A stretch of 63,851 nt of DNA, counting the filler, from an uncultured Methanosarcinales archaeon (GTDB lineage: Archaea > Nanobdellota > Nanobdellia > Woesearchaeales > CAYSVS01): NCBI GenBank assembly GCA_964434475.1. It is 6 parts of 6 records of this genome, joined end to end, with 100 filler letters (N's around TTAATTAATTAA, not from the genome) between each part and the next. Parts side by side here need not be neighbours in the genome. Positions count along the whole stretch, not along the records: positions 1 to 12,050 come from CAYSVS010000041.1; 5 more parts are not named here. One strand, given 5' to 3'. The number at the start of each line of letters is the position of its first letter. Positions within the stretch are counted from its first letter, which is position 1. This document shows positions 1-33,120 of this stretch, in pieces. Below the pieces are notes generated by a model. The model was not told where the DNA came from. It saw only the letters and a list, made by a program, of their open reading frames with translations, and did not search any database. Made by a program: the position numbers and the translations under genes.

Positions 1-145
1 AAATATCAAGTAGATATATAGAGTTTACGTTTTTGCTAATTTTGCAAAGTTCCCTCTATCAAATGAGCGAATGCGATACATAAAGAACAAGAAAAAAGGG
101 CAGTTTTCCGTAAAGTTTTAAATATTATTAAACTAAATTCTGTGT

Positions 146-1087
146 GTGGCACAAAAAAAGCAAAAACCTTGGAACAAAGGAAAAAAAGGATTGCAAGTTG
201 CTTGGAATAAAGGCAAGAAAGGAACTCATTTTTCTCCTAAAACTGAATTTAAAAAAGGCTCGGTACCTTGGAATAAAGGTAAAGGAAAATATATGTCGGG
301 AAGTAAAAATCCTTTTTATGGTAAGAAGCATTCAGAGGAAACAAGAAGAAAAATGAGTGAAGCTGCCAAAAAAAGAGTTAACGGAGGAATGTTTGGCAAA
401 AAACATTCTAAAGAAACAAAGAAAAAGATAAGCCATTCATCAAAAGGAAGAAAATCTCCGATGAAAGGAAAACATCATTCTAAAAAATCAAGAGTTAAAA
501 TGAGCCAATCTCAGAAAAAGTGGTTTGAAAATAATAATGTTTGGAATAAAGGAAAACCAATGCGTAAAGAATCTAGGCTTAAGCTTAGTGAAGCGCTTAA
601 AGGAAGAATTCCTTTTAATAAAGGAAAAACAAATGTTGGGATGTATGGAGAAGAAAAAGCTAAGGTTTTAGAGCAATTAAATAGAGAGCATATTTTAATC
701 ATGTATGCTTCAGGCACTTTTCCAAAACAAACAAATACAAAAATTGAAATATATATGAAAAAAGAAATGTTAAAGAGAGGATATCGAGAAAATATTGATT
801 TTTTTCATCAATTTAATTTTAATAATAAATTTATGTGTGATTTTGTATTTCTTAAACAAAAGATTGTTATAGAATGTGGTGGTGATTTTTGGCATGCAAA
901 TCCTGAAACATATGCTGGGAAAGAATTAAAGCAAGCACAATTAAATACTCTAAAAAAAGATAAAGCAAAAAATGCGTATATTTCTAAATTTGATAAAGGT
1001 TCTTGGAAACTATTGAGATTTTGGGAATGTGATATTAAAAAAGATGTTTCTAAGTGCGTTGATAAAATTGAAAAATATCTGAAATAG
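146..1087 (+). CDS. NUMOD3-repeat protein with C-terminal Vsr/DUF559-like endonuclease domain (cassette 1 cargo)
   Basis: Repeated PWNKGK and GKKHSxETxxK(M/I)S motifs; C-terminal CDFVF...VIECGGDFWH...LLRFWECDI. Flanked by IR AGGGCAGTTTTCC (97-109) / GGAAAACTGCCCT (1087-1099). Confidence 0.8.
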   Translation: MAQKKQKPWNKGKKGLQVAWNKGKKGTHFSPKTEFKKGSVPWNKGKGKYMSGSKNPFYGKKHSEETRRKMSEAAKKRVNGGMFGKKHSKETKKKISHSSKGRKSPMKGKHHSKKSRVKMSQSQKKWFENNNVWNKGKPMRKESRLKLSEALKGRIPFNKGKTNVGMYGEEKAKVLEQLNREHILIMYASGTFPKQTNTKIEIYMKKEMLKRGYRENIDFFHQFNFNNKFMCDFVFLKQKIVIECGGDFWHANPETYAGKELKQAQLNTLKKDKAKNAYISKFDKGSWKLLRFWECDIKKDVSKCVDKIEKYLK

Positions 1088-1125
1088 GAAAACTGCCCTA
1101 TCTGTTTTTTTAGCCTAAAAAGATT

Positions 1126-1161
1126 ATTTCACTTAAGAACGCGATCGCTCTTATATACCCT
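1126..1161 (+). repeat. Cassette junction S1 (collapsed form)
   Basis: ATTTCACTTAA-GAACGCGA-TCGCTC-TTATATACCCT. Same 8+6 core as S3 but without the inner arms and loop. Confidence 0.75.
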
Positions 1162-1231
1162 GACTTACGAACGAAATGTAGTGAGGAAGGTGCGTAGCGT
1201 TAGCGGAGCAAGTAAATTTAAGCGTGAAAAA

Positions 1232-1522
1232 TTACTCTCTTTCTTGCATATAGTCTACTACTATAGTTATTATTTTTTTTGTAATTTCATTGCAATTCTT
1301 AAATGAAATTTTATCTAAGATTTCGATTCCATATTTTCTAATTAAGTCACTGATTAAAGCGTGAATAAATGATTGAGTTGCTGATTCAATTTTTTCAAAA
1401 TCTAGAGTTATTTCTTCCTTTTTATTTAACATAGGAATTATTTTATTGATTCTAATATCTCTAGCTATATCTTTATTCTCAGCAAAGCTCCCGACTAAGG
1501 GGTGTAGTTTTATTGTAGTCAT
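1232..1522 (-). CDS. STAS-like domain protein (DUF4325 family; cassette 2)
   Basis: ITLDFEKIESATQSFIHALI motif; overlaps the stop of the upstream ATPase gene. Confidence 0.75.
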   Translation of the reverse strand: MTTIKLHPLVGSFAENKDIARDIRINKIIPMLNKKEEITLDFEKIESATQSFIHALISDLIRKYGIEILDKISFKNCNEITKKIITIVVDYMQERE

Positions 1523-2484
1523 ATAAATCTTGGCCTCCTATATTTTGCTTTTTTTCTTTCTCTCACAGTTTTTATATATGTTTCTCTAATTAAATCTAAT
1601 AAAATTGAAAACTTTTTTGTTGCGTCTAGTGATATGTCTATTCCTACAATGGTTCCATTCCAAAAAGGAAGATTTTCATCTTTAGAATGTCTATCTTTAA
1701 ATGGGTCTGAATATAATCTAATGTGTTTTTGTTCAGGTTTACTTTTTAGTAGTTTATACATGGCATTCCCGCTATATATCACAAAAAAGTCACGATTTAC
1801 CTTAGCAATTGACTTAATAAAAAACAATCCTGCTCCAGCATTAAATTCTGAGCCTCCCTCTTTTGTTGTAGTTCCAGTTATTCCTGGCGTCAGTGCTAGT
1901 TGAATTGCTTTTAAGTGAGTTGATGCAGGATAAGAATAACTGATTGCTTTTTTAATTCCAATACCTGTATCCACTATACCAATCCTAATAGTATTGCTTT
2001 TTTTATAGTATTGGGCTGAAAGTATTGCACCAGAGTTAGATTTAGAGTGTTCCAATACATTTCTCACTAACTCACTGACTATATATTTAATAGGTTCTAC
2101 TTGTTTAGGTTCTAGGTGTAATAAGGGAATCATTTCAGTAATAAAATTAGTCAATTCTGTTGAATTTTTTATTTGTGTTAGAGGTATGAATCGTCCAGCA
2201 GGTTCATGTTTTGTAACTTTTATATTTGATTCAATTCCTAAGAACTTAAATAAACCCATTCTCTCAAGATAATGTTTTGATGTTGCTTCAATTTTTTCAC
2301 AATCTATATTTGAAGATTTTACTTTTAGGCCAAGAGAAGCTAACATAGATAAAACTACTGGATGAATCGAAATCCATTTTTTATTTGCTGTAATTTCTAA
2401 TTTATCGGGGCGAGAACTATCAAATTTTCTAATAAATGGATCAATATTTCCTAAAAATGCACTATTTGGAAGGTGTATTTTCAT
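1519..2484 (-). CDS. Histidine-kinase-like (HATPase_c/anti-sigma-type) ATP-binding protein (cassette 2)
   Basis: N-box SELVRNVLEHS, G1 box IVDTGIGI, G2 box GAGL. Start placed at the ATG at 2484 (MKIHLP). Confidence 0.8.
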   Translation of the reverse strand: MKIHLPNSAFLGNIDPFIRKFDSSRPDKLEITANKKWISIHPVVLSMLASLGLKVKSSNIDCEKIEATSKHYLERMGLFKFLGIESNIKVTKHEPAGRFIPLTQIKNSTELTNFITEMIPLLHLEPKQVEPIKYIVSELVRNVLEHSKSNSGAILSAQYYKKSNTIRIGIVDTGIGIKKAISYSYPASTHLKAIQLALTPGITGTTTKEGGSEFNAGAGLFFIKSIAKVNRDFFVIYSGNAMYKLLKSKPEQKHIRLYSDPFKDRHSKDENLPFWNGTIVGIDISLDATKKFSILLDLIRETYIKTVRERKKAKYRRPRFI

Positions 2485-2586
2485 ATTACCGGGAAATATA
2501 ACAGTATTTATAAATGTTTTGTTTTTACCGGGAATCCCGGGCAATATATGTTTATTCTAATTCCCGGTAAATTCGCGCTTAAATTT

Positions 2587-2622
2587 ATTGAACTTAAGAT
2601 CGGCATGCCTCTTAAGTTCTCC
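2587..2622 (+). repeat. Cassette junction S2 (collapsed form)
   Basis: ATTGAACTTAA-GATCGGCA-TGCCTC-TTAAGTTCTCC; hairpin with a 2-nt bulge. Confidence 0.8.
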
Positions 2623-2738
2623 GCCAGTTACAAAGTTCTGGCGGATTGCGATCGCAAAGTAAAATTTAGGTTTCCAGTCAATTTCTACTGAAGGTAGACT
2701 ATATTTTAGGGAATTCTCTATGTTTAAAAATAAATAAT

Positions 2739-2930
2739 CTATTTTCCTTTTATCTCAGGAACAATGTCCAAAACGATTGTTTTTTCAGAATTTGTTAGTT
2801 CTTGATTTAAAACTAGTTTCTTGATAATATCTTTTAAAACTTTGTTTTCATTAGATAAACTACCAACTTGAGATTGAGCTTCATCTCTTTGACGTCTTGC
2901 AGTTATACCTGGCCATGGATTATTATACAT
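2739..2930 (-). CDS. Small hypothetical protein (cassette 3)
   Basis: 63-aa ORF with ATG start and an upstream GTGA motif; no family recognised. Confidence 0.45.
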   Translation of the reverse strand: MYNNPWPGITARRQRDEAQSQVGSLSNENKVLKDIIKKLVLNQELTNSEKTIVLDIVPEIKGK

Positions 2931-3137
2931 AATATCACTACAATGCTATTAGAAATAATACTTTATAAAACTAATCTAATTAATTTTCATTAAGTCGTTT
3001 ATTTATAAATAAAATCAAAAAGTATAAATATGACATAATACAATTTATGTAATAATGGCAAAAAGGGGATTAGCTAGTTTTCTTAGTAATCATACATTAG
3101 ATTTAAATTTATTCCTCATTTATAATGGGGTAGAAAA

Positions 3138-3827
3138 ATGAGTTCATGTATACGTAATAGAGAAATTTGTACCCCTGTCAATGATTTTATGTCGACATTT
3201 AGGACTGTTCTTGATAGCTTTTTTGTTAAGAAAGATCATACAATCAATGCACAATTAGTTATGAATGAATTAAAACAAAAAAAAATCAATATAGAACAGA
3301 TTAAGATTTTTCTAGATACTTTACCCAAAGAAGAATGGAGCATAAAAACTTTCCTTGATAATATTGAAAAACTTAATGATTTTTTCGGAATAAGTGATGA
3401 GGAAATTAATAAGTGGAGTGTGAATCAATTAAACGAAAAAGATGTCTTGGAAATAAGATTTAGAGTTGTTGTTGAATCTATGATAGAATATACTAGATTT
3501 GCATCTGAATTTTATGATGCTTTAAAATATAATACTAATAACCAACTTTCAATGGCAAAAATTAAATTGCTCAATGAATTAATGATGGTCTTTAAATATA
3601 TAAAAGAACAATCAAAAATGATATCGGAGCATTTTAAAAACCGCAAATACAGTATAAAAAATCTAAATGATTTAAATGTGGCCAGACTACCTATTGAATT
3701 TTTAGTTTTAAGAATTCTTTATATAAGTATGAATCTAGCAAAATCTAATGACAAAATGATTGTACATTATGCCGAACTACTCAGCAAAGAAAGAATTTCT
3801 TTAATATATCAGAAAGTAGTTGCATAA
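3138..3827 (+). CDS. Hypothetical helical protein (cassette 3)
   Basis: 229-aa ORF overlapping the start of the next gene. Confidence 0.65.
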   Translation: MSSCIRNREICTPVNDFMSTFRTVLDSFFVKKDHTINAQLVMNELKQKKINIEQIKIFLDTLPKEEWSIKTFLDNIEKLNDFFGISDEEINKWSVNQLNEKDVLEIRFRVVVESMIEYTRFASEFYDALKYNTNNQLSMAKIKLLNELMMVFKYIKEQSKMISEHFKNRKYSIKNLNDLNVARLPIEFLVLRILYISMNLAKSNDKMIVHYAELLSKERISLIYQKVVA

Positions 3828-4587
3828 AATGAAAACGGCATCTGATGTAAATACAATTTTTGCATATAATGATTCATCTCACTTCTTTCATAGACCAGTC
3901 TGCTTACACATGGCAAAAAATATTCGAGGAAAATATGTTCTATTAGATAAAGTAAAAGCAAATTTCATACACACTTATAGAACATACATGACTGATTGTG
4001 AAATTATTATTGAAAAGTCAGTAAGGGAGTACAAACAAAAATTAAGTTCATCACCTTCTAAAACATATACTCCTTCTCTACTAGCCATATCAAAAAATGT
4101 AGATAGCATTATAGCTGGACATTTAAAAAAAATGTCAAATAATATGGACTTTAACATTAAAGCGATAAGAATATTTATCACTTTAATGCTGAGTGATTAC
4201 TCCATTCCAGAACTTGTAAAGAACGATACTGCTTTAGGCGACTTTAAGGAAAAATACCTACTTAAAGCTGAAGAAAGAGCAAAAGATTCACTAAATAAAT
4301 TTGTAAAGTTTTTCAAATCAAATGAATTTGAATTAATGAATATAGGACAATATGAAACTTATGACGAATGGGTAAAAAAAATAAAAAATAGTAAAAATAA
4401 CAGTATTTTTAAAAATAAAAAAGATTATGAGGACATAACTATTGCTGCAGAACTATTTGCATTTAATTCGGAAATAAGTAAATTAGCATTTTTCACAACT
4501 GATTCCGATTTTCAATACTCAACTCCAAAGATAAGTAAAGAATATAAACAAGAAATCGGAAACATAACGTTAATATCAAATAAATAA
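3820..4587 (+). CDS. Putative PIN-like domain protein (cassette 3)
   Basis: N-terminal SDVNTIF and C-terminal EDITIAAE...FFTTDSDF acidic motifs resemble the PIN fold. Confidence 0.55.
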   Translation: MHKMKTASDVNTIFAYNDSSHFFHRPVCLHMAKNIRGKYVLLDKVKANFIHTYRTYMTDCEIIIEKSVREYKQKLSSSPSKTYTPSLLAISKNVDSIIAGHLKKMSNNMDFNIKAIRIFITLMLSDYSIPELVKNDTALGDFKEKYLLKAEERAKDSLNKFVKFFKSNEFELMNIGQYETYDEWVKKIKNSKNNSIFKNKKDYEDITIAAELFAFNSEISKLAFFTTDSDFQYSTPKISKEYKQEIGNITLISNK

Positions 4588-4671
4588 TATTTACTATTAG
4601 TTTAAAAAATATTAATTTATTTTTGTTAAAAAAGAGAATTCCCTATTTATTTTTATAGAAACCTAAATTTT

Positions 4672-4841
4672 ATTGAACTTAAGAACGCGATTAGGCGATA
4701 GTTTTTAGGGTGCAGAGCTGATTGAGGCAGCCCACAATCCTCTGAGGTTAGGGTGGCGTAGCTGGTAGAATTTGGGAGAACGTAGGCGAAGCTACGAAGT
4801 GGCGAGCCGTAGTGAACCGCCTAATCGCTCTTAAGTTCTCC
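4672..4841 (+). repeat. Cassette junction S3 (full form)
   Basis: ATTGAACTTAA-GAACGCGA-TTAGGCG...loop...CGCCTAA-TCGCTC-TTAAGTTCTCC. Two inverted dif-like sites with 8- and 6-nt spacers. Confidence 0.85.
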
Positions 4842-5110
4842 CGACTACGAAGTGGGAGGGATTGCGAAGCAAAGTTGTGTTTAAGTTCCAATCAATTCGA
4901 GCGTGGCGAGTCAATATGTCCGAAGCACGGGGGGAGTTCAGTTCTTTCAAAAGAGCGAAGCGATACTTCAAGAACAAGAATAAAGGGGAGTTCCTATTTT
5001 TTATATTTCAAGGCAGGGCCATCATTTACAACCCTTTAATAGTGACAAAAACAGAAAGAGTTATAACTGGGCGTAGCTTTATACCAATATTAAACTCATA
5101 AGGTGATAAA

Positions 5111-5944
5111 ATGTCAAAATTAGAAACAATTACTGATAATTTACATGATGGATATAATCAATTAAAGAAAGGCACTTTCAGAAGTTCAAAACAGATTCAA
5201 ACCGAAAGGATGAATAATGAAGAACTAAGAAATAAATACTTTTATACTGCTAATGTAGCTACTTATGAACATGCAAAAGATGGTACTGTTAGTTTTTCTC
5301 TTGGCGATGATGTTGCATTTGAATCCGTCATAGGAAGTGAAAATATAGGACAATTCTGTAATGATTTATTAGAAGAAGGAGACCATACGCTTAGTGATTC
5401 TCAAGTAAAAAAACTATCCGAACTTGATAAGAAACATGTTGTAAAGGTTAAGTATAATGATTTAAGATTAAACGAACATCATAGTCAGCTAAGTTATTTA
5501 GAAATCAATACGACTAATTTTGATTCACTAAATGATTCAGAGAAAGCACTTGTTAATATGGTTCATGGAAATGACTATAAGAAGAAAATGGAAATGCTTT
5601 CTGATTCAGGTATAAAAACCACTAAAATTTATATGTTGTCTGAAAATTATGTTAAAAATAATGTTAAGAAAGGTTCATCTATTGCGCGGGCGTGTTGGCT
5701 CGGTAGTTTCTATTACATTTCCTACTTCGGTGCTAATCTCAATAGTGTGGGTAGTCACGAGCGTCTGCGTGGGGTAAATAATTCCGGCGCAGCCGGTGTA
5801 AATGCGAACGATAGTGAGCAAACACAAAAATATACTGATATTGGAATAATTAAACACTTTGATGAAAATCCAATTAGAGACCTAGATTTAGCTAATAAAT
5901 TAATGGGCAAACTTAATGACTTTTATCAAAGTTTAAAACAGTAA
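5111..5944 (+). CDS. Putative diversity-generating retroelement (DGR) target protein (cassette 4)
   Basis: C-terminal ARACWL...FxA...RLRGV variable-region-like segment rich in NNY codons, followed by a CCGGC-GCA-GCCGG hairpin. AGGTGA RBS upstream. Confidence 0.75.
   Translation: MSKLETITDNLHDGYNQLKKGTFRSSKQIQTERMNNEELRNKYFYTANVATYEHAKDGTVSFSLGDDVAFESVIGSENIGQFCNDLLEEGDHTLSDSQVKKLSELDKKHVVKVKYNDLRLNEHHSQLSYLEINTTNFDSLNDSEKALVNMVHGNDYKKKMEMLSDSGIKTTKIYMLSENYVKNNVKKGSSIARACWLGSFYYISYFGANLNSVGSHERLRGVNNSGAAGVNANDSEQTQKYTDIGIIKHFDENPIRDLDLANKLMGKLNDFYQSLKQ
5684..5796 (+). other. Putative DGR variable region (about 5684-5776) plus cis hairpin (5784-5796)
   Basis: GC-rich stretch within an AT-rich gene. 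About 13 codons are of NNT/NNC form, derivable from AAT/AAC by adenine-specific mutagenesis. Confidence 0.7.
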
Positions 5945-6115
5945 ATATTAAATATTCTTTCTTTTTTATTATTCTTGTCTGGCTTAATTGCTGGGCTACA
6001 CGCTTTTTTATTTTTAGGAACTCCCCTTTTAGAATAATTAAATTTCTTTACTAAGTAAAGTGTAACTGTCCGAAGGACTAGAACTCCCCCTATTTTTTAA
6101 AAGAACTTAAACACA

Positions 6116-6253
6116 ATTGAACTTAAGATCGGAATTATCTGAAGTTTTTTGGTGAGGCAGCCCACACCAAAAAATTTGGGAAACATTCGGTAAATCGCTT
6201 GGCGATTTAGCGTAAGCGACCGAATTTTCCTGATAATTCTTCTTATATCCTTT
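6116..6253 (+). repeat. Cassette junction S4 (full form)
   Basis: ATTGAACTTAA-GATCGGAA-TTATC...loop...GATAA-TTCTTC-TTATATCCTTT. Confidence 0.85.
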
Positions 6254-6471
6254 TCCCATACTCAAGTGTGGGAAAACTGCGTCCGCAGAGTGGAATTTGA
6301 GTTGAAAGCGTAGATTTCTTTTAGTTTTTCAGTATTTAGGGGTTCCGAGTTATTAAGGGGTGAGAAAAAAATCATATTTAGTTTACTAAATAGTATACTA
6401 AAAAGAGAAAGTTTAAATAAAAGATATCCCCAACAACTCTTGTGCGATTGCTGGGGATATGTTCGATTCCT

Positions 6472-6774
6472 TCAAATTAAATCAATTTTGTTTCTGTTTT
6501 TGTAAGCTACTTCATCACGGTATGTTATCCTTTCAAAGGATCCGTTTTGTTCGATTTCTCGTAAATCGGCTTCCACGTCTTTTTTTCTGTTGCGGTATCT
6601 TCTGTAGATTTCCTTTAAAAAAACTACACTGTTGTGATGTTTTAACCTCATCTGAAGGAACCGTTCGACATTTGTTTTCATTTCAAACACCTCATGGTCC
6701 TCCAAACCGGCTTTTTTTCCGTGTAAGGAATCTACGTATGCGAAAAAACAGATATATTTATAAATCTTTCGCAA
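6472..6774 (-). CDS. Hypothetical protein (cassette 5)
   Basis: About 100-aa charged ORF divergent from the HTH gene; start uncertain. Confidence 0.5.
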   Translation of the reverse strand: MRKIYKYICFFAYVDSLHGKKAGLEDHEVFEMKTNVERFLQMRLKHHNSVVFLKEIYRRYRNRKKDVEADLREIEQNGSFERITYRDEVAYKNRNKIDLI

Positions 6775-6832
6775 TTACTGGAACTAAATGGTTCTATTTT
6801 GGAACTATTGCTTATGGAAAAGAGGTGATACC

Positions 6833-7156
6833 ATGAGGAGGCTTGACAAAATGGAGGTCAAAACTGTAGACGATTCGGCTTTTTTTGAGATACTAGGAAA
6901 AAGCCAGAACACTAAAATATTGGAATTATTTATTGAACGAGATAGAGATCAATTTAATTTTAGTGAAGTCGCTGAAATGGCTAATGTGCAAAGGCAAAAA
7001 ATAAAAGAAATCCTGGATATTTATTGTAAGATTGGATTACTTTCAATTGCCAAAGAAAGAAAAAATAGAAAATTGTATGTTTTAAACAATTCGAATGCTT
7101 ATGCTAAGCATATTAAAAAAATATATCAGCTAATATTAAAAGAAAAAAACCTATAA
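6833..7156 (+). CDS. Winged helix-turn-helix protein (cassette 5)
   Basis: KILELF...FNFSEVAEMANV...KIGLL...LYVLN wHTH pattern; GAGGTGA RBS before the ATG at 6833. Confidence 0.75.
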   Translation: MRRLDKMEVKTVDDSAFFEILGKSQNTKILELFIERDRDQFNFSEVAEMANVQRQKIKEILDIYCKIGLLSIAKERKNRKLYVLNNSNAYAKHIKKIYQLILKEKNL

Positions 7157-7269
7157 TTTTTTAATTTTTAATTATTTTAAAGAAAGAATTTCATATGTGT
7201 AGTGTTAAATTATTTGAAGTGCTAGATTTATATATAATTATTATTTTTTATTCTAAAAAGGTAAATGAA

Positions 7270-8088
7270 ATGTTAGGAAGACACCATAGTGCATTGACAA
7301 TTGGAACTATTTTACCATTTTTAATTCCTTTAATATTTGTATCAAATGATAATGCCTTAATTTATGGGTTTACTTTCTTGATTGCGGCATTAATTGGATC
7401 ATTGACGCCTGATGCTGATTGTGGAGGTAATGCAACATTATACTATAGATTTGGTCCTATTGATTGGCTGATGAAAAAAGTAGTCATTAAATTGACCATT
7501 AAACTATATGAACAACCTTATTTGAAAAAACAGGTTCAAGAGGGATATAAAGTTCAAGAAGAGCACAGAGGAATTATGCATGCACCTGCGGGGATTATTA
7601 TCAGTTCTTTGATTTTGACTATTATTGGAGCAATTATCGCATATTTTGTTGAATTATTTAATATTACATATTTAATGATAATTTTTAGTGGTTTGTTGGT
7701 CGGACAATTTTTCCATTTGTTAGAAGATAGTTGTACTGTTTCGGGAATCAATTGGAAATTTCCTAAAGGAAAAAAAGAATTAAGTGGGAATATCTACACA
7801 TTTGATAAATTTCAAGATAAAAAAGATTATAGACCAGATCTATTTTTTGAAATTTTATCTGTATTAAACTTGGCGATATTCTTACTATTAGGCTTAGAAA
7901 AAATGACACTTGCATTATGGCAGTATTATCTAATCGTCTGCTTCACTATACTGATCATATGGCTATTTTTTCTTTGGTTATCTGGTATTTGGTCTGAATC
8001 AAAAGAAATTCCAAAAATATTCTTAATTGACAAGGAGAAATATAAAGAAATAAAGAAAGGATTAAGAAAATCAATAAAACAAAGGTGA
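7270..8088 (+). CDS. YdjM-like membrane metal-dependent hydrolase (cassette 5)
   Basis: MxGxxH, GSLTPDAD, HRGIMH and HLLEDxxTxSG motifs; several TM helices. Confidence 0.85.
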   Translation: MLGRHHSALTIGTILPFLIPLIFVSNDNALIYGFTFLIAALIGSLTPDADCGGNATLYYRFGPIDWLMKKVVIKLTIKLYEQPYLKKQVQEGYKVQEEHRGIMHAPAGIIISSLILTIIGAIIAYFVELFNITYLMIIFSGLLVGQFFHLLEDSCTVSGINWKFPKGKKELSGNIYTFDKFQDKKDYRPDLFFEILSVLNLAIFLLLGLEKMTLALWQYYLIVCFTILIIWLFFLWLSGIWSESKEIPKIFLIDKEKYKEIKKGLRKSIKQR

Positions 8089-8126
8089 ATTGATTCGTTA
8101 ATTTTATATTGTTTGTATGCTATTAA

Positions 8127-8912
8127 ATGAAAATGGTTAAGAAAAAAGATTTAGGACATTTGATATCTCCAGTACTCAAAGCAGGATTGAATATACCTAC
8201 ATGCGGTTTTGCAAGTGCCATAGCAGATGTTTTTGATGCACCATATAAAATTCAAAGACAAAAAAATTTAAAGAATTTTGTTGATCAAACAATAAAAAAA
8301 GTCAAAGAGTTAGATATAAAGATTTCAGAATTAGATTTTAAAAAAAGAATTAATGAGCCTGAATTTATACAATTATTTTCAGAGATTCTTAATAAAATTC
8401 AAAACGAAACAAGAGCGAAGATTAGACAAAGTTACTCAAATTTATTGACTAATTTATTAAAAGAAGAAGCAAATATTAATTTTAATAAAAAAATGTTTTT
8501 CGTAAAACTCTTGGAGAGTCTTAATGAAGATCACATCAAATTGTTGCATATATTTTATAAGGATAGAACTGTAAAAAATAGGCTGAAATTAGATACTTTA
8601 CATCAAAAAATGAACTGTTTCATAAAACGTAAAAGAAAAAAAGGAGACCCTGTTAGTTTATTTACTGATGATAAAAGCAAATATATTACTGTTCTTGATG
8701 AATTAAAAAGCTCATATATAGAATCATTAATAAGTGATTTAGACAGTAAGAAACTAATCAATATTGAAATGGATATTTCTTCGGAAGCTAATGTTGATGA
8801 AAACGAAGGTAATGTTACGGCAGTTGATTCCATTGACAATGATATATCTTATGAATATATGGGAACTCAATTAGGATTTGATTTCTATAAGTCAATAAAA
8901 GAATATAAGTAG
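8127..8912 (+). CDS. Hypothetical protein, possibly Abi-alpha/DUF4393-like (cassette 5)
   Basis: Helical core with YSNLL...FVKLLESLNEDHIKLL and a C-terminal wHTH-like TQLGFDF; resemblance only. Confidence 0.5.
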   Translation: MKMVKKKDLGHLISPVLKAGLNIPTCGFASAIADVFDAPYKIQRQKNLKNFVDQTIKKVKELDIKISELDFKKRINEPEFIQLFSEILNKIQNETRAKIRQSYSNLLTNLLKEEANINFNKKMFFVKLLESLNEDHIKLLHIFYKDRTVKNRLKLDTLHQKMNCFIKRKRKKGDPVSLFTDDKSKYITVLDELKSSYIESLISDLDSKKLINIEMDISSEANVDENEGNVTAVDSIDNDISYEYMGTQLGFDFYKSIKEYK

Positions 8913-9050
8913 TTTCTTATTTTAAAAATTGATAGACCTATTTTTTTACGTATTGTTTTTTTTCTCGCCCCTTACATTATTTTCTTTTGCTTTGCAAAAG
9001 GCTAGATTTACTCGGAACCCCTCATCTTTATTGTTAAGAACTCAAATTCC

Positions 9051-9139
9051 ATTGGATATAAGACCTATTATGCGCATTTCTTTTTCGCATAATGTGCGTA
9101 TAAAGTGGTTATTGCGCATAATTAGGTCTTAAGTGCTTG
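9051..9139 (+). other. Terminal dif-like recombination site S5 (candidate chromosomal attachment site)
   Basis: ATTGGATATAA-GACCTA-TTATGCGCATT (11-6-11, 9051-9078), an extra half-site TTTTCGCATAA (9082-9092) and an inverted copy ATTGCGCATAA-TTAGGTC-TTAAGTGCTTG (9111-9139). Confidence 0.75.
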
Positions 9140-9211
9140 ATTTTGGACGTATGTGTTATAGAATATGTGTGTCCTTTTAGCTCAGTTTAACATTGTTAAA
9201 TTCAGAACTGT

Positions 9212-9616
9212 TTAGTTTAGAAGATTGCTTAGCTCTTGTTTTATGTCAGGTATTCTTGTGCTTTGTATTGTCTTTGTCTGCTGGCGGATGCCATTTTCAT
9301 CTTTGCCGTACTGCGTATATTCTTTATTTATGTGTGTCTTGCATTTTGCTATAAATTTAGTATATCCTATATCTTTGTTAATCTTTATCTCTATTAGCCT
9401 TTCTATGCCATTATTATATTTTATCTTGTATTCTTCTGTGCAAGCTATTGATTTTCTTTTGGATATCTTAACTGCTTCGCAATACTCAGGATTATGTATC
9501 CTTTCGGAATAAAGTCTTTTGATATCCTTTAATGTTTTTACTTTATTGTTTTCAAGATAATTTAATATGCATTTTGCGGCATATTTCATATCTTTCTTTG
9601 TAATCTTTGAATTCAT
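9212..9616 (-). CDS. Hypothetical protein
   Basis: 134-aa ORF; no family recognised. Confidence 0.55.
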   Translation of the reverse strand: MNSKITKKDMKYAAKCILNYLENNKVKTLKDIKRLYSERIHNPEYCEAVKISKRKSIACTEEYKIKYNNGIERLIEIKINKDIGYTKFIAKCKTHINKEYTQYGKDENGIRQQTKTIQSTRIPDIKQELSNLLN

Positions 9617-9714
9617 GTTTTTGATATGGATAGTTTATTTAAAAATGTAGTGTGTTTTTTATTGTATAATCTATCATACAAAACATTATAAATACTCCCT
9701 TAATCAACATACTT

Positions 9715-10959
9715 ATGAAACTTATTGCTGATTTACATATTCATGGAAAATACAGCCAGGCAACTTCTAAAGAGCTTACTATCCCTAATTTAGAGAAATG
9801 GGCAAGGATAAAAGGTGTCAACTTGTTAGGCACTGCTGACTTTACACATCCAAAATGGATAGAGCATATCAAAGAAAACCTAGAAGAGGATGACACAGGA
9901 ATATTAAGAACAAAATCAGGCTTTCCTTTCATGTTACAGACAGAGCTTTCTTTAATCTACAGTCAGGGCGGAAGAGGCAGGAGAGTACATAATATTGTAC
10001 TTGCAAAAAATATAGAGGTAGTACAACAAATAACAGAGGCTTTGTTAAAAATAGGAAGAGTAGATTATGACGGAAGACCTATATTTGGCATGAGCTGCAT
10101 TGAATTTGTTGAGCTTATGAAAAGCATAGACAAAGATATAGAGATCATTCCAGCACACATATGGACTCCTTGGTTTTCTGTATTCGGAAGCAAAAGCGGT
10201 TTTGACACATTAGAAGAATGCTTTGGTGACCAACTAAAACATATACACGCATTAGAGACTGGATTAAGTAGTGATCCTGCGATGAACTGGCGTTTATCAC
10301 AATTAGACAAATATACATTGATAAGCAATTCTGATTTACATTCATTCTGGCCTTGGCGTATAGGTAGAGAAGCAAATATTTTTGAAATCAACAAATTAAC
10401 CTATGATAACATACTCCAGATTCTAAAAACAAAAGAAGGCCTAAAAGAAACTATAGAAGTGGATCCTGCATACGGTAAATATCATTATGATGGTCATAGA
10501 AAATGCAATGTGTGTTTAAAGCCGTCAGAAACTATGAAAATGCAAGGTATTTGTCCTGTATGCAAAAGACCATTGACTATAGGTGTAGAATATAGAGTAG
10601 AGCAATTAGCAGACAGACCGCAAGGATTTAAGCCAAGAAATGCTATTCCATTCAGAAGCTTAATACCTTTATCAGATATAATCTCAAAAATAAAAGGAAG
10701 AGCTGTTACAACTAAGACAGTCTGGGCTGAATATAATAACTTGATCAAGGAATTTGACAATGAATATAATATTCTATTGAATGTAGGGTCCCAGGAATTG
10801 AAGAAAGTGTGTGATGAAGAATTAGCAACAGCGATAGTCAATTCTCGATTAGGTAACATCAAAGTACAGCCTGGATTTGATGGTGAATACGGCACACCTT
10901 TATTTTCAGAAAGCGATAAAAGAGTATTTCATAATATAGAAAAAAACAAAAAGGTTTGA
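9715..10959 (+). CDS. Endonuclease Q family PHP-domain protein (TIGR00375-like)
   Basis: ADLHIHGKYS, GTADFTHP, PAHIWTPW, SNSDLHS, GKYHYDGHRKC and CPVC zinc motif. Confidence 0.9.
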   Translation: MKLIADLHIHGKYSQATSKELTIPNLEKWARIKGVNLLGTADFTHPKWIEHIKENLEEDDTGILRTKSGFPFMLQTELSLIYSQGGRGRRVHNIVLAKNIEVVQQITEALLKIGRVDYDGRPIFGMSCIEFVELMKSIDKDIEIIPAHIWTPWFSVFGSKSGFDTLEECFGDQLKHIHALETGLSSDPAMNWRLSQLDKYTLISNSDLHSFWPWRIGREANIFEINKLTYDNILQILKTKEGLKETIEVDPAYGKYHYDGHRKCNVCLKPSETMKMQGICPVCKRPLTIGVEYRVEQLADRPQGFKPRNAIPFRSLIPLSDIISKIKGRAVTTKTVWAEYNNLIKEFDNEYNILLNVGSQELKKVCDEELATAIVNSRLGNIKVQPGFDGEYGTPLFSESDKRVFHNIEKNKKV

Positions 10960-12050: not shown

Positions 12051-12150
12051 NNNNNNNNNNNNNNNNNNNNNNNNNNNNNNNNNNNNNNNNNNNNTTAATT
12101 AATTAANNNNNNNNNNNNNNNNNNNNNNNNNNNNNNNNNNNNNNNNNNNN
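12051..12150. other. Artificial contig linker
   Basis: N44-TTAATTAATTAA-N44 (stop codons in all six frames). Confidence 0.97.
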
Positions 12151-12250: not shown

Positions 12251-13690
12251 ATGAATATAAAAAGAATAGTCATAAGTATTGTATTGTTGGTGTTGCTTTC
12301 AAATATTGTTTTAGCTCAGAATACTGTACATCTTTATTTTTTCTATGGTGAAACATGTCCTCATTGTGCGCAGGAAGAGCTTTTTTTAGATGAGTTAGAA
12401 GATAAATATCCAGATCTAAAAGTGCACCATCATGAAGTGTATTATGATAGTCAGAATCAAAAACTGTTTAAGGAGATGGCTCAAGCTTTTGGTACAAGCG
12501 CAAGAGGTGTTCCAACAACATTTGTTAATGATAAAGTTTGGGTAGGGTATGCGCCAGCAAGAGCTTCAGAGATTGAAGAAAGAGTAAAAACATGCATAGA
12601 ACAAGGTTGTATTGATCCTTTGGAAAAGATAGGTAAAACATCAAGCAATGGTGAAATTTCGACAGATATGGAGACTGTTGTATCTGTCGAGCATTCTGGA
12701 AATGGCAATGAGCAAGAAGATAAAACTAAAGAATCTACAGATACAAATGTAGAACTGCCTTTTATTGGACAAGTAGATGCTTCAAAGATGTCTCTGCCTG
12801 CATTAACTTTGATCTTAGGATTTATAGACGGATTTAATCCTTGTGCTTTTTTTGTTCTGTTATTTTTGTTGAGTATGCTAATATATGCAAAATCAAGAAA
12901 GAGAATGCTTATAATAGGTGGAACTTTTGTATTATTTTCAGGCCTGATATATTTTATATTCATGGCAGCTTGGCTTAATATTTTTTTGCTTATTGGCTCA
13001 TTGAAAATGGTTACAACAATAGCGGGAACTGTTGCTGTAATAATCGCTGTAATTAATATTAAGGATTTCTTTTTATTCAATAAAGGTATAAGCTTATCTA
13101 TTTCTGATGAGGCAAAGCCAAAGCTGTTTCAGAGAATGAGAAATCTTCTTAGGGCAGATTCAATGACTAATATGTTGATAGGAACTATAGTCTTGGCAGT
13201 TGCAGCTAATATGTATGAATTGCTGTGCACAGCAGGATTTCCTATGGTGTTTACAAGGATCTTGACATTGAATAATTTTTCATCTTTTACATATTATATG
13301 TATTTAGTGTTTTATAATATTGTATATGTGGTGCCTTTGGCTGTTGTGGTAGGAGTATTTACTAAAACATTGGGTGCGAAAAAAATGACAGAATGGCAGG
13401 GCAGAGTGCTAAAATTATTGTCAGGGATGATGATGCTTTCTTTAGGATTGCTGCTATTGTTTGTGCCTGAGCTTCTGAATAATGTATTTATATCAGTCGG
13501 AGTCATAGCTTTTGCATTGTTTATGACATGGATAATAGTAACTGCAACAAAAGATGCATTGAAAGAACATGCTCAAGAAGATGAATGTGTTAAGATGTGC
13601 AAGGAAAATAAGAAAACAGACAATGATAAAAAGGATAAGGATTTAAACAAAGATGAGGAAGAAAAAGATAAATTTTCAAAGAAAGATTGA
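12251..13690 (+). CDS. Thioredoxin/glutaredoxin domain fused to DsbD/CcdA-like membrane domain
   Basis: Signal peptide, CPHC, DGFNPCA and ELLCTAGFP motifs; multiple TM helices. Confidence 0.85.
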   Translation: MNIKRIVISIVLLVLLSNIVLAQNTVHLYFFYGETCPHCAQEELFLDELEDKYPDLKVHHHEVYYDSQNQKLFKEMAQAFGTSARGVPTTFVNDKVWVGYAPARASEIEERVKTCIEQGCIDPLEKIGKTSSNGEISTDMETVVSVEHSGNGNEQEDKTKESTDTNVELPFIGQVDASKMSLPALTLILGFIDGFNPCAFFVLLFLLSMLIYAKSRKRMLIIGGTFVLFSGLIYFIFMAAWLNIFLLIGSLKMVTTIAGTVAVIIAVINIKDFFLFNKGISLSISDEAKPKLFQRMRNLLRADSMTNMLIGTIVLAVAANMYELLCTAGFPMVFTRILTLNNFSSFTYYMYLVFYNIVYVVPLAVVVGVFTKTLGAKKMTEWQGRVLKLLSGMMMLSLGLLLLFVPELLNNVFISVGVIAFALFMTWIIVTATKDALKEHAQEDECVKMCKENKKTDNDKKDKDLNKDEEEKDKFSKKD

Positions 13691-18571: not shown

Positions 18572-19753
18572 TTGATGTAGAATTTCTTTACTGTATTTTT
18601 CTTTACACTTAAAATATTGCGCAGCTATGTATCCAATAGAAGCAAGTGTCTCTTTTCTAGGTTGTATATTCAAATTTTTTAAGTTAAATCCTTTTGAATA
18701 TGCTAAGAATGGAACCTGTTCTCTATTATGAAAACCATACATCTTTCCTGGCTTGTATTCTTTTTGCTTCATTCCGTGATCAGCAGTGAATATTATTATG
18801 TCTTTGTTGTCCAATCTTTTAATCATCAAAGGAATGGCTTTGTCTATCTGTTCTAAGCATTTTATAACTCCTTTGACATCTCTTTTGTGTCCATATAGGC
18901 TGTCTGTATCAACAAGATTAGCAAAAATAAATGCGTTTTCAGTTGTATTTTCAAGTGTTTTCAGTATGTTTGTTAAATTATAACCATTAGTATCCTTATT
19001 CTTTGGATGTATGTGTTCTAATCCATAGCCTAATTCTTTATCTTTTATGCTGAGATTGAATCCTTTGCCTATAAGATCAGCTGGTTTTCCTATGCTTATC
19101 TTTTTTACATCAAGCACATCCAGTAATGTTTTCCCAGGTAATTCTATAACAAAGTCTTTTCTGTTGGCAGTTCTTGTAAACCCATTTTCATCTCTTATAT
19201 ATGGTCTTGCTATGGTTCTGTTTATTTCAAATATTTTCATCTCTAGAGCAAGCTCAAGTGCATTTTTGCATATAGAATATTGTTCATCTATCTTTATCTT
19301 GTTTTCATCCATTGCGATTTGGATTATAGGATCGCATATACTTGAGTATAATATCGGAGCGCCGGTCTTTATGTGTTCTTTATGATTAAGTTTAATGGCT
19401 TGCATGCCTTCTGCTATCTGGTTAAACATTATTTTTCTGCCTATTTTTTGTTCTAATGCTGTAATGAATTCATCAGGAAAACCATTATGAAATAAGTCAT
19501 ATTTTTTCAAGTCTATTATGCCCACTATCTCTCTGTGGCCTATTACACTGTCTGCATCTTTGGACTCTTGTTCTAATGAAGTAACCACTCTTTTTGGGCC
19601 TATGATACTTAAATTATTGCTCTTAAGAAAATTATTTAATTCAAAGTATTTGTTGAAATTAGGCAGTTCTACTTCTTTTCTGTATTCTTTTAGATATGAT
19701 TCTAGTGTTGGTTTTCCTAGCGCATCTATGACTATTGTGATGAGTCTTGACAT
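18563..19753 (-). CDS. deoB: Phosphopentomutase
   Basis: IVIDALG, DSVIGHRE, TIARPY, RTANRKDF, NLVDTDSLYGHKRD, TADHG. Confidence 0.88.
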   Translation of the reverse strand: MSRLITIVIDALGKPTLESYLKEYRKEVELPNFNKYFELNNFLKSNNLSIIGPKRVVTSLEQESKDADSVIGHREIVGIIDLKKYDLFHNGFPDEFITALEQKIGRKIMFNQIAEGMQAIKLNHKEHIKTGAPILYSSICDPIIQIAMDENKIKIDEQYSICKNALELALEMKIFEINRTIARPYIRDENGFTRTANRKDFVIELPGKTLLDVLDVKKISIGKPADLIGKGFNLSIKDKELGYGLEHIHPKNKDTNGYNLTNILKTLENTTENAFIFANLVDTDSLYGHKRDVKGVIKCLEQIDKAIPLMIKRLDNKDIIIFTADHGMKQKEYKPGKMYGFHNREQVPFLAYSKGFNLKNLNIQPRKETLASIGYIAAQYFKCKEKYSKEILHQSY

Positions 19754-23624: not shown

Positions 23625-23724
23625 NNNNNNNNNNNNNNNNNNNNNNNNNNNNNNNNNNNNNNNNNNNNTTAATTAATTAANNNNNNNNNNNNNNNNNNNN
23701 NNNNNNNNNNNNNNNNNNNNNNNN
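23625..23724. other. Artificial contig linker
   Basis: N-run with TTAATTAATTAA. Confidence 0.97.
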
Positions 23725-30927: not shown

Positions 30928-31410
30928 TTATAATTTCGGCGTCAAACTGGAATAATCAATACAATCTCTCGCTTTATCCCACTTCGCTATTTGCATAAAT
31001 TTATTTGTTTTTGTTCCAAACTTCAATAAATCTTCTCTTTTCAAGACATTAATAATATGTGATAATCTGCCTAATCCTTTAGAAGAAACTAAAAAAGATT
31101 CTATTGGATCTATTAATTGAGTGTATCCCCAAAGCTGTCCTAAATCTTTGAGAGTTAAATCTGTGTCTTTCACTTCAACAAAAACAAGTTTAAACTCATC
31201 GCCTCTTTTCAAAATTCCTACAATATCTACTTTTATTTGTAAGCCTATTGCTTCTTTACATTGGATGCCTTTACTTTTCAAAACAACATCTAAGTTTCTT
31301 CTTGAAGTTTCATAAGTAGTCTGAACTGTATAACCTTTGTATTTATCAGTTAAGTAATTCTGCAACCATTCTTTTATTTCAGGATAAAGTTTTTCTTCTT
31401 CTTTACTCAT
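30928..31410 (-). CDS. Small PD-(D/E)XK nuclease-fold protein
   Basis: EEKLY...VDIVG...FVEVK...GQLxGY motif. Confidence 0.7.
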   Translation of the reverse strand: MSKEEEKLYPEIKEWLQNYLTDKYKGYTVQTTYETSRRNLDVVLKSKGIQCKEAIGLQIKVDIVGILKRGDEFKLVFVEVKDTDLTLKDLGQLWGYTQLIDPIESFLVSSKGLGRLSHIINVLKREDLLKFGTKTNKFMQIAKWDKARDCIDYSSLTPKL

Positions 31411-32314
31411 CGTAACCTAACTCCTTTGACATATCTTTCCAACTATCAAAATGTTTTCTAACTTTTGTGGGTAATTTCGTACTTTTTTCTTCTGGATGTT
31501 TTGGTTTTTTCCTGTTTATTTCCTTAGTCTCCCAATAAAATTTATGATGTGCTTCTGAAATTGGTTTATCCTTATATTTTTTAGAATCTTTTGATGCTTC
31601 TTTCCAATTTTTTCTGTTTAAGTCAGCAAATCTCTTTAGAAGCTTATTTTTATGGTCAATATTAAAACCTACTTTTTCAAATTCTTCTGCCCATACTTTT
31701 ATTTGATGTTCTTTATTCCAAAATTCTTTTGAACCTTCATTATATTTTTTCAAATTTGGATCAACTATGTTTGGATGAGCAAACCTAATTGTTTGAACTG
31801 GAACATCTAATTCTTTTAGCAAATTCGCAATATCTATGCACAAATCCCAATTAACCATTATTTCAACATAAACTCTATTTTCATAATCTTTCCATGCAAC
31901 ATTACTTTTTCTTATATGAGCTGTTACGTCGGCAATTCCTCTTAAAAATTCTAATTTTATGTCTTTTGTTGCAGAAAATATTTCTGTTGGTATTCTTACA
32001 TCTCTCCAGCTTACATGGTTTTTCAAATATGTGTTAATAGTTCTTATCAAATAATCTCCATTTGGTTTTGAAAAAGAAATATGGGCGATGTTTGGTCTTG
32101 AGGTGTCCCATTCCATATCTGCTCCAACAAGAATTTTTAATCTTCCAACAATATCTAATAAACTTGACTTTACTGATTGTTGGGTATTCTCTCCTTCAAT
32201 CACTAAATTTTTATGTGGAATATCTATGATAATCTCCGTATCTCTATTTCCTCTAATTATTTGTCCTTTCCCGACAATCATTCCCAATAAATAAGCTATA
32301 TCTGCATTTAACAT
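31403..32314 (-). CDS. LAGLIDADG-like two-motif protein with degenerate catalytic residues
   Basis: IAYLLGMIVGKG and IPxxIF...EFLRGIADVTA. Confidence 0.6.
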   Translation of the reverse strand: MLNADIAYLLGMIVGKGQIIRGNRDTEIIIDIPHKNLVIEGENTQQSVKSSLLDIVGRLKILVGADMEWDTSRPNIAHISFSKPNGDYLIRTINTYLKNHVSWRDVRIPTEIFSATKDIKLEFLRGIADVTAHIRKSNVAWKDYENRVYVEIMVNWDLCIDIANLLKELDVPVQTIRFAHPNIVDPNLKKYNEGSKEFWNKEHQIKVWAEEFEKVGFNIDHKNKLLKRFADLNRKNWKEASKDSKKYKDKPISEAHHKFYWETKEINRKKPKHPEEKSTKLPTKVRKHFDSWKDMSKELGYDE

Positions 32315-32318
32315 TTTT

Positions 32319-33119
32319 TCACTTCCTAAATATGAGTATGAACTCATGAACTTTATTTACTCTAAATACAAATGGATAACCAAGAGGACGCATATTATTA
32401 TACTCTTTTTGTCTATCCCAAATAATCATATCATCTAATTCAAAACCAATTTCTTGCATTTTGTTTATCATATCCATATGAAATGGATAAAACTTTGCTT
32501 TTTTTCTAATGTCCATTACCACAACGATACAATATTTTCCTTTCTTTAAAACTTTATAGACGCCTTCAAATCCTGTTTTGAGTTTATTTAAGAATTCTTG
32601 ATAATCTGCGATATTTCCCAAGTCATCTTTTGAATTACTATAATTTCTTATTTCTTTTCTATCGGCTGACCTTTTGGCGTTTAGAATATCCCAATATGGC
32701 GGAGATGTAATAACTAAATCAACAGAATCTTCTTTTAATGTTTTAGGAATATCAAAAATAGTTTTATTATAAATTTCTGGCTTAATTAAATCCTCTGGCT
32801 TTTGTTCTAAATTTAACTGAGTTTCTTTTATTCTATTTTCAGATAATTTAATGTATTCTTTAGAAAGTTCAAATCCTATTCCTTTTCGACCTAATTTATA
32901 GGCAGATACGACCGTACTTCCACTTCCTAAAAACGGATCTAAAACAACTTCCCCTTTATTTTTAGTGTGAATTTGAATTAATCTTGATGTTAATTGAGTT
33001 GGAAACATAGCAGGATGTTTTAATTTCCTTTCTCCGTTGGTTTTTTCAATATCTTTCCAAATACTAAAAGAGTATTGTAACCATTCTTTCCCTGTTAAAT
33101 TATTCATTCGTTCTCCCAT
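32319..33119 (-). CDS. Amino-DNA methyltransferase (probably N4-cytosine)
   Basis: HPAMFP, DPFLGSGST, TSPPY. Confidence 0.9.
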   Translation of the reverse strand: MGERMNNLTGKEWLQYSFSIWKDIEKTNGERKLKHPAMFPTQLTSRLIQIHTKNKGEVVLDPFLGSGSTVVSAYKLGRKGIGFELSKEYIKLSENRIKETQLNLEQKPEDLIKPEIYNKTIFDIPKTLKEDSVDLVITSPPYWDILNAKRSADRKEIRNYSNSKDDLGNIADYQEFLNKLKTGFEGVYKVLKKGKYCIVVVMDIRKKAKFYPFHMDMINKMQEIGFELDDMIIWDRQKEYNNMRPLGYPFVFRVNKVHEFILIFRK

Positions 33120-33120
33120 T

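Follow-up and report, generated by a model that had tools for sequence, protein, structure and literature searches.

The first 9.15 kb of a 63,851-nt stretch of DNA from an uncultured Methanosarcinales archaeon (GCA_964434475.1, placed by GTDB in the Woesearchaeales; the whole stretch is called the window here) hold an array of five cassettes, the left edge of which is lost beyond the window start. The array is probably an integron-like, Xer-driven cassette system, in which tandem mobile cassettes sit at an Xer/dif-like core and the attachment site is read in folded form. Such Xer-type systems appear to be common in DPANN archaea. It is highly likely that a recombinase drives the cassette system and that the inverted repeats closing the cassettes belong to its palindromic attachment site, split in two. 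The chances that the folded form is the + strand as single-stranded DNA (ssDNA) are about even.

Nine long-range inverted repeat pairs had been proposed from the sequence alone to close cassettes 2 to 5, and all nine were re-read by script at their positions (18, 17, 13, 16, 10, 15, 15, 13 and 18 nt, in the order of Table 1). They contain no non-pairing positions and six G·T pairs (AGT/ATT four times, 1225/2575 and 6361/8967), and all six carry their G or T on the + strand, as the sequence-only reading had stated. DNA duplex energies of the cognate cassette ends are -16.4, -28.8, -35.6 and -38.8 kcal/mol, compared with -9.6 to -21.3 kcal/mol for non-cognate ends and averages of -9.5 to -12.7 kcal/mol for shuffles. 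The AT-rich stem of cassette 2 (-16.4) is equalled by its best shuffle (-16.6), so that its energy is unremarkable and it stands out by position only. The minimum-energy DNA fold of each whole cassette strand recovers all nine stems. The repeats had also been said to fold on one strand only, which is not the case: in whole-cassette folds the - strand makes the same stems, with 12 to 17 of 15 to 18 pairs.

The same organization is present in a curated set of 52 cassettes, comprising four from the window, one from the metagenomic locus L146 and 47 from ten loci of nine DPANN genomes (genomes and loci are denoted by G and L numbers). All 52 start with AGT and a repeat X and end with its reverse complement rcX, ATT and an arm. 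Their outer stems are 11 to 18 bp long and contain 690 Watson-Crick pairs, 7 G·T, 4 A·C and 9 other combinations. AGT is paired with ATT in all 41 cassettes in that register, in agreement with what was noted in the window; the next commonest end-triplet rows (36) are the same ends shifted by one base, most other rows are single matches, and neither of the fully complementary combinations, AAT/ATT and AGT/ACT, occurs among 135 matches. A further exact inverted repeat of at least 9 nt lies inside the outer stem in 49 of the 52 cassettes, typically 53 to 61 nt past AGT, against 84 of 304 non-cognate controls; nested closure is therefore the norm. The proposal that sequences differ while pairing is kept is borne out by 43 distinct outer-repeat 12-mers among the 52 cassettes and by the covarying arms described below (28/34). 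Not every sequence is specific to its cassette: the end modules of cassette 4 recur with other cargo in L146, L164, G178, G151 and G223, and its outer-repeat module (4873-4888) is also found in L146, G178, G151 and G223.

These cassettes were collected by a scan for inverted repeats adjoining arm-like sequence (units AGT-X ... rcX-ATT-arm), followed by curation, in which a doubtful pair in L215 and pairings of one duplicated cassette with another were removed. The regions scanned came from a BLAST search with window 4588-5110, the end module of cassette 4, which matched 81 of 250 sampled genomes of the phylum, 29 of them at E 1e-10 or better (counted from the table); one of the 29, the unpublished G246, was left out of further analysis, and 12 regions from 10 genomes were taken for study. 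A metagenome scan for the arms gave 74 loci, three of them true (L144, L146 and L164, all on Joint Genome Institute contigs); in these, the end modules of cassette 4 already appear with three other cargos. Searches with other exact patterns found no relatives. The 16-nt arm pattern had only chance matches, at 120 loci in genome contigs; a loose right-arm-like motif lay downstream in two of these, both by chance and in bacterial metagenome-assembled genomes (MAGs) lacking an array. The arm-gap-arm pattern gave three chance matches in coding sequence of viral contigs and none in 400 genomes of the phylum, the relatives having TAAC/GTTA arms.

Terminal inverted repeats on each unit could alternatively mark cargo elements mobilized by a transposase, similar to miniature inverted-repeat transposable elements (MITEs) or foldback elements. 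The module families occur in multiple copies within the source community and are spread over many genomes, and one unit in G074 (L205, ~1290-1420) is apparently cargo-less, its left-module loop running straight into the right-end module and the next site, all of which would suit such elements. A transposase would, however, need conserved repeat sequences, and these are not conserved; moreover, the units always adjoin a recombinase-type core site. MITEs with target duplications had been named beforehand as the outcome that would overturn the sequence-only reading, but each junction has a single spacer, which differs on the two sides of a cassette, with no target-site duplication, and Pfam scans revealed no transposase in the window or among 99 proteins of the related loci. 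Transposase-driven mobility is extremely improbable. The mobile-enzyme matches among the 99 proteins are three tyrosine recombinases and one serine resolvase (Resolvase, E 1e-40), the gene for which lies among cassettes at L218:1041-1658 in G201. An ssDNA transposon of the IS200/IS605 type was rejected, as no Pfam scan of the window or related loci matched Y1_Tnp and the units carry terminal inverted repeats, whereas such transposons have conserved subterminal hairpins without them. Retrons, group I and II introns, bridge RNA and bulge-helix-bulge processing were dropped because no matching gene or model turned up, no specific test having been made for them.

The junctions between cassettes share one order: ATT, a 10-nt left arm, a GC-rich spacer, a right arm of 10 nt, hairpin 2 (its sequence varies; the loop is of the ..ACGAAG.. 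type) and one or two C-GNA-G mini-hairpins just before the AGT that opens the next outer repeat. The arm after ATT has a perfect complement 39 to 109 nt before its own cassette's AGT in 29 of the 52 cassettes; another 7 match at 9 of 10 positions, 8 at 8 of 10, and the last 8 at no more than 7. The five variable nucleotides of the right arm fit the far-end arm of the same cassette at 28 of 34 junctions but the left arm of the same junction at only 7 of 34. The window has one such case: the variant right arm of junction D (6241-6250) is the exact complement of the left arm of junction E (9054-9063), at the other end of cassette 5. The arms thus pair by cassette and not by junction, a pairing absent from the sequence-only reading, which places the crossover between the arms, in the GC spacer. 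With a central crossover, the long-range repeats and the arms become two halves of one split palindromic site. To judge from these sequences, each integrated cassette is apparently flanked by the halves of its own palindromic attachment site.

The clearest strand-specific signal comes from the C-GNA-G mini-hairpins. Those reported at 1192, 1203, 4864, 4955 and 6070 are all present. The ratio of + to - strand copies is 10:1 in the non-coding zones of the window array, 8:0 in L146 and 60:2 in 34 junctions (3672 nt), whereas the other 54.7 kb of the window have 8 and 20; the strand signal is strong. The branch with these hairpins is confined to one side of the palindrome, where it follows the right arm and precedes AGT. 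Hairpins of the d(GCGAAGC) type are unusually stable in DNA. The cargo genes lie on either strand, so the signals are not tied to cargo transcripts.

A + strand transcript has also been considered, in which the stems closing each cassette would serve processing, as in archaeal rRNA operons, or the junctions would be small structured RNAs. RNA tolerates G·U pairs, RNA parameters give the + strand folds the greater stability (junction C, -74.5 vs -61.8; junction D, -67.7 vs -60.0), and the insertions in some spacers carry conserved loops on covarying stems. Against this, C-GNA-G triloops are the classic hyper-stable mini-hairpin of DNA and not a favoured RNA loop, the arms look like those of a recombinase site, the units pass from genome to genome with cargo that differs, and cargo on both strands leaves the structure untied to transcripts. 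There is also no Rfam family match: at the gathering threshold the sole match in the window is a tRNA at 29860, and an E-value scan of positions 1-9700 gave three chance-level matches only. That the structure acts in RNA is quite improbable.

The spacers vary. They are 10 nt long in junctions A and B of the window, while junctions C, D and E have a stem-loop insertion of 63 to 144 nt within the spacer. The right arm of junction E is followed by ordinary genes, without hairpin 2 or an AGT module. Hairpin 1, aligned from seven sites, consists of a conserved outer stem of 10 bp and, beyond a 2-nt bulge, an inner stem in which 5 of 7 pairs show compensatory changes; in a further alignment 12 of 29 pairs show them. 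Among the relatives, the 16-cassette array of G114 (L211) has mostly short junctions, consisting of ATT, an arm ending ..TAACA, an 8-nt GC spacer, an arm beginning TGTTA.., hairpin 2, a mini-hairpin and AGT. Short junctions in the relatives generally have arms of 10 to 11 nt around a GC spacer of 6 to 8 nt, and most sites are ~28 nt long. The arms contain ..TAAC / GTTA.. in the relatives and read AAG/CTT in the window. Spacers differ between neighbouring sites within one array.

Two further features of the junctions were noted. A conserved structured element of ~80 to 190 nt, with an 11-bp closing stem that shows compensatory changes (12 of 29 pairs) and a conserved-loop hairpin, occupies exactly the recombination spacer of some junctions (Table 1); it matches no Rfam family and may represent a small RNA, a regulatory structure or a very small mobile insertion. 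The octamer GCGATCGC is found at 1141-1148, in the spacer of junction A, and at 2649-2656, in the mini-hairpin of junction B, as one of the GC palindromes used there; its interpretation as the cyanobacterial HIP1 (highly iterated palindrome 1) was dropped, the host being archaeal.

An Xer-type recombinase was found in the relatives and not in the window; the dif-like core (arm, GC spacer of 6 to 10 nt, arm) is seen in both. In G178, G151 and G223 a tyrosine recombinase gene lies 150 to 180 nt past the last site of the array, downstream and co-oriented (L217:6164-6994 in G178); neither of the closed genomes G178 and G223 yielded another full-length Xer-like gene. The products have 273 to 278 amino acids with Phage_integrase and SAM_4 matches. 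Their best solved relative is XerA of Pyrococcus abyssi (4A8E, E 4e-37), followed by Vibrio cholerae IntI4, which matches in two stretches. The NCBIfam model XerA_Arch (NF040815; cut-off 220) scores them at 222, 236 and 192 bits. Thirteen further XerA-like genes were found in array-bearing genomes. Three have an ATT-plus-arm site 136 to 169 nt upstream, and for ten the contig ends no more than 1.9 kb away on the upstream side, as would be expected if upstream repeats break assemblies. At junction E, ATT and the start of the arm (9051-9061) are identical at 11 of 11 positions to the left arm of the P. abyssi dif printed in PMC2958812. The archaeal dif described in PMC8371274 has the form 11-6-11; PMC5357621 describes an xerA/dif module in some archaea and an 11-bp central region for difSL.

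Tandem small cassettes between imperfect palindromes also recall an ordinary integron, or a cluster of attC sites lacking an integron integrase (CALIN), as reported in Archaea, with hairpin 1 as attC. The relatives' arms (..TAAC / GTTA..) resemble the R boxes of attC, IntI4 ranks second among the solved relatives of the recombinase, and the Nanoarchaeota are among the phyla with attC sites reported in PMC9668308. The integron-integrase model TIGR02249, however, scores the recombinases at only 165 to 187 bits (cut-off 265), and this match in two stretches, together with a length of 273 to 278 amino acids, indicates that the IntI-specific domain is missing. The crossover would lie at the centre of the palindrome and not in an R' box at its base, most sites are smaller than attC, the arms in the window read AAG/CTT rather than AAC/GTT, and cargo orientation is mixed. 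That this is a conventional integron is highly improbable.

Some observations concern the surroundings of the XerA-like genes. In L212, L223, L228, L231, L232 and L233 the upstream regions share a motif ..CACTGGACA.. followed by a TATA-like TTATAAAT or TTTAAAT, 20 to 60 nt before the start codons, which is probably a promoter with a regulator site. In G178 (L217, reverse strand), a 41-nt copy of the 3' end of a gene (10606-10645 and 18812-18850) and a duplicate of the terminal site (12847-12990 and 18693-18815) bracket ~8 kb containing a cassette and the XerA-like gene. The recombinase module of G178 may itself lie on an integrated element.

The following mechanism would account for these features. 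A XerA-type recombinase would carry out the reaction, with excised circles as intermediates. In the excised circle the two halves would be contiguous and form one local branched palindrome of ~150 to 400 nt, made up, from the outside to the centre, of one to three sequence-free outer stems, ATT/AGT, the 10-nt arms and a short GC-rich spacer. Between the right arm and AGT, hairpin 2 and the C-GNA-G mini-hairpins would form a one-sided branch. Strand exchange in the spacer would split the palindrome on insertion, leaving the right arm, the branch and AGT-X... at the left end of the cassette and ...rcX-ATT and the left arm at its right end. Since complementarity is kept in arms and outer stems that are free in sequence, the site should be read folded at least once per transfer cycle. 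Folding would take place at the integration step, most likely as + strand ssDNA, as for integron attC and CTX attP, with an extruded cruciform as an alternative. In the simplest account the excised form folds and insertion is limited to units whose halves match, and all integrated cassettes would for that reason be self-complementary without any folding of the chromosome over kilobases. The cargo loop of 1 to 3 kb proposed in the sequence-only reading is accordingly not required, the halves being adjacent in the circle. Long-range pairing within a single-stranded array, joining the half-sites for excision, may take place as well. Different spacers within one array would fit the exchange of a single strand that replication then resolves, as it does in integrons and in the integration of CTX phage. 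The fullest form of this proposal, in which a housekeeping-type XerA acts on a branched hairpin of + strand ssDNA with the crossover at its apex and each cassette carries a self-complementary clasp (an 'inside-out integron'), is tentative, its prospects being somewhat below even; there the clasp on an integrated cassette could join its own half-sites for excision.

Several results weigh against a folded, Xer-driven site. Both strands are able to form every long-range stem, and the arms of cassette 2 are not complementary (7/10). The + strand bias of G·T pairs seen in the window persists in the invariant AGT/ATT but is otherwise weak in the larger set (7 G·T to 4 A·C in the outer stems of the 52 cassettes); loss of strand bias there had been named in advance as evidence to the contrary, and for wobble pairs other than AGT/ATT the bias is nearly lost. 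The junction folds have 12 G·T pairs on the + strand and none on the -, but shuffles average 11.7 and 5.5, and a difference of at least 12 arises in 12% of them, although none has zero on the - strand; the 12:0 ratio is partly an effect of base composition. Among the contigs compared, none had an excised or circular junction and none skipped a cassette at the spacers; the comparison yielded other end-module copies, and the listed joints are short-sided and not interpretable as excisions. Protein family scans found no recombinase gene in the window, where the array runs off the left end. The G114 array and a second locus of G178 lie away from a XerA-like gene, and a dif-shaped pattern had two matches in five DPANN genomes and two in the control. 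Most junctions of the relatives, finally, look like ordinary double-stranded core sites that need no folding.

Much of this would be expected if the system were purely double-stranded, with arm-spacer-arm core sites acting as duplex DNA and the repeats serving as accessory-protein sites or as cruciform-prone sequence of the circle. The short junctions are dif-like, with arms and spacer close to the archaeal 11-6-11 (PMC8371274), and stems on both strands and a 7:4 wobble ratio suit duplex sites. A protein-binding site would nevertheless conserve its sequence, whereas 43 of the 52 outer repeats differ and are still complementary, and the variable half of the arm covaries by cassette. Sites with 110 to 190 nt in the spacer (junctions C and D; L211, L218) keep their stems and, because of these insertions, cannot act as duplex core sites. 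The 60:2 bias of the mini-hairpins would be meaningless in duplex DNA, and the differing neighbouring spacers would disfavour a two-strand exchange that needs spacer identity. A duplex-only system is unlikely, and the folded, split site is the preferred reading.

Table 1. Coordinates of the array features in the window; loci outside the window are named. "Script + fold" marks repeats recovered both by script and by folding.
Feature	Coordinates	Strand	Remarks
Cassette 1	1-1128	+	Truncated by window start; ATT 1126-1128 at its end; outer partner left of the window
Cassette 1 inner repeat	97-109 with 1087-1099	+	13 nt, perfect; tenth pair, absent from the sequence-only reading
Cassette 2 outer repeat	1211-1228 with 2572-2589	+	Starts AGT, ends ATT; script + fold
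Cassette 3 outer repeat	2658-2674 with 4658-4674	+	Ends ATT; script + fold
Cassette 3 second repeat	2707-2719 with 4633-4645	+	Script + fold
Cassette 4 outer repeat	4873-4888 with 6103-6118	+	Ends ATT; script + fold
Cassette 4 middle repeat	4930-4939 with 6081-6090	+	Script + fold
Cassette 4 inner repeat	4982-4996 with 6015-6029	+	Script + fold
Cassette 5 outer repeat	6289-6303 with 9039-9053	+	Ends ATT; script + fold
Cassette 5 second repeat	6338-6350 with 9010-9022	+	Script + fold
Cassette 5 third repeat	6354-6371 with 8957-8974	+	Script + fold
Junction A	1126-1210	+	ATT 1126-1128; left arm 1129-1138; GC spacer 1139-1148; right arm 1149-1158
Junction A branch	up to 1210	+	Hairpin 2, then GNA mini-hairpins 1192, 1203
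Junction B	2587-2657	+	ATT 2587-2589; left arm 2590-2599; spacer 2600-2609; right arm 2610-2619
Junction B branch		+	Hairpin 2 ~2620-2645; palindromic mini-hairpin 2646-2657
Junction C	4672-4872	+	ATT 4672-4674; left arm 4675-4684; 144-nt structured spacer insertion 4685-4828; right arm 4829-4838
Junction C branch		+	Hairpin 2 ~4839-4859; mini-hairpin 4864-4870
Junction D	6116-6288	+	ATT 6116-6118; left arm 6119-6128; 112-nt structured insertion 6129-6240; variant right arm 6241-6250
Junction D branch		+	Hairpin 2 6251-6276; mini-hairpin 6277-6288
Junction E	9051-9136	+	Last site of array; ATT and left arm 9051-9063; central hairpin 9064-9126; right arm 9127-9136
Spacer-insertion element	4685-4828, 6129-6240; L211:6550-6708, 12482-12650; L218 ~2940-3123; L146:2024-2101		L218 copy on - strand

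The cargo of the array includes HNH and homing-type nucleases, Abi_alpha and pieces of a DrmA-like ATPase. Cassette 1 encodes a NUMOD3 / Vsr-like protein resembling homing endonucleases (146-1087), and cassette 2 encodes DUF4325 and HATPase proteins on the - strand (1232-2544). Cargo orientation is mixed in the related loci as well as in the window. To the right of the array lie genes for an EndoQ-like PHP protein (TIGR00375), cupredoxins, lipoate and glycine-cleavage proteins, L10e, NOG1, Trm1 and ArgRS; the closest named homologues of this ArgRS are 50 to 57% identical and belong to MAGs of 'Candidatus Woesearchaeota' and 'Nanoarchaeota', which makes the host a DPANN archaeon. Among sequencing runs, a single microbial-mat metagenome contains this DNA and is its probable source, and no RNA run with it was listed. 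Many other contigs of the same microbial mats match the end modules only (55-93, 4869-4990 and 6144-6291), and the end-module family is highly multi-copy in the source community. Positions 1-55 occur on a 1105-nt contig with a depth of 292, compared with ~9 for the rest of the window, the start of which is probably an assembly break. Outside the array the window has a restriction-modification cluster (31403-34788) with N6_N4 and Eco57I / N6 methylases and an unassigned neighbour of 314 amino acids, and three paralogous AAA_14 / DUF4143 ATPase genes (39853-41115, 41637-42893 and 55958-57241). Paired 44-base N runs recur about every 11.5 kb (12051-12150, 23625-23724, 35198-35297, 46726-46825 and 57899-57998); these are masking and not biology.

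No description of XerA-linked cassette arrays in DPANN archaea was found in the literature, in which subscription journals and the supplements of PMC9668308 could hold overlapping arrays. Capture of cassettes through folded DNA has so far been a hallmark of integrons; here the same logic would operate with a XerA-type enzyme and a central crossover, in the small genomes of DPANN archaea. If so, it would explain the exchange of accessory and defence-like genes among reduced symbionts, provide a simple sequence rule for finding cassettes (AGT-X...rcX-ATT-arm) and bear on how integron attC recombination evolved from Xer/dif.

Several known systems share parts of this design. The pdif modules of Acinetobacter have plain 28-bp flanking sites in alternating orientation. 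Like the cassettes, they are discrete gene modules bounded by Xer-type sites, with the arms as inverted repeats at the module ends; unlike them, the sites described here are all co-oriented, and the inverted repeats reach far past the arms and are free in sequence. The ssDNA of CTX phage folds into a dif-like attP, which is a precedent for a folded + strand as an Xer substrate. The xerS/difSL and archaeal xerA/dif modules described in PMC5357621 also have a recombinase gene beside the site and a central region longer than 6 bp (11 bp in difSL), but in that description they resolve chromosome dimers and form no cassette arrays. The integrative mobile elements exploiting Xer (IMEX) that use Xer at dif, covered in the same source (PMC5357621), resemble the array in their Xer-family recombinase, dif-like arms and tandem integration beside one site. 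Unlike IMEX and CTX phage, the cassettes are only 0.4 to 3 kb long, lack replication and phage genes, occur by the dozen in an array and have stem sequences of their own; the host is an archaeon with a single XerA, and the pattern search does not support the site as the dif of its chromosome.

Integron attC sites are ~57 to 141 nt long, with R'', L'', L' and R' boxes and a conserved AAC...GTT; the crossover falls in R', and the whole attC stays with the upstream cassette. Arrays of the present kind share with integrons their tandem, small, promoter-poor cassettes beside a tyrosine recombinase gene and a primary site. As in integrons, the sequence of the site varies while its pairing is conserved, a few site bases travel at the 5' end of the cassette, and the structural signals are strand-specific. 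They differ in the array-adjacent recombinase, which is of the XerA type without the extra domain of IntI, and in a crossover at the centre or apex of the palindrome, whereas that of integrons is in R' at the base. About half of a 150- to 400-nt site lies at each end of a cassette, the branch of GNA hairpins is one-sided, the cargo has both orientations, and the recombinase gene is co-oriented with the array and downstream of it. The folded ends had been described as a feature not found in integron cassettes; the topology does differ, through the central crossover, but the principle is not wholly separate. The integrons reported from Archaea have IntI-type integrases and canonical attC sites (Ghaly et al., PMC9668308). 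An integron turned inside out would, if real, mean either that gene capture of the integron type was invented independently or that it shows how attC recombination arose from Xer/dif.

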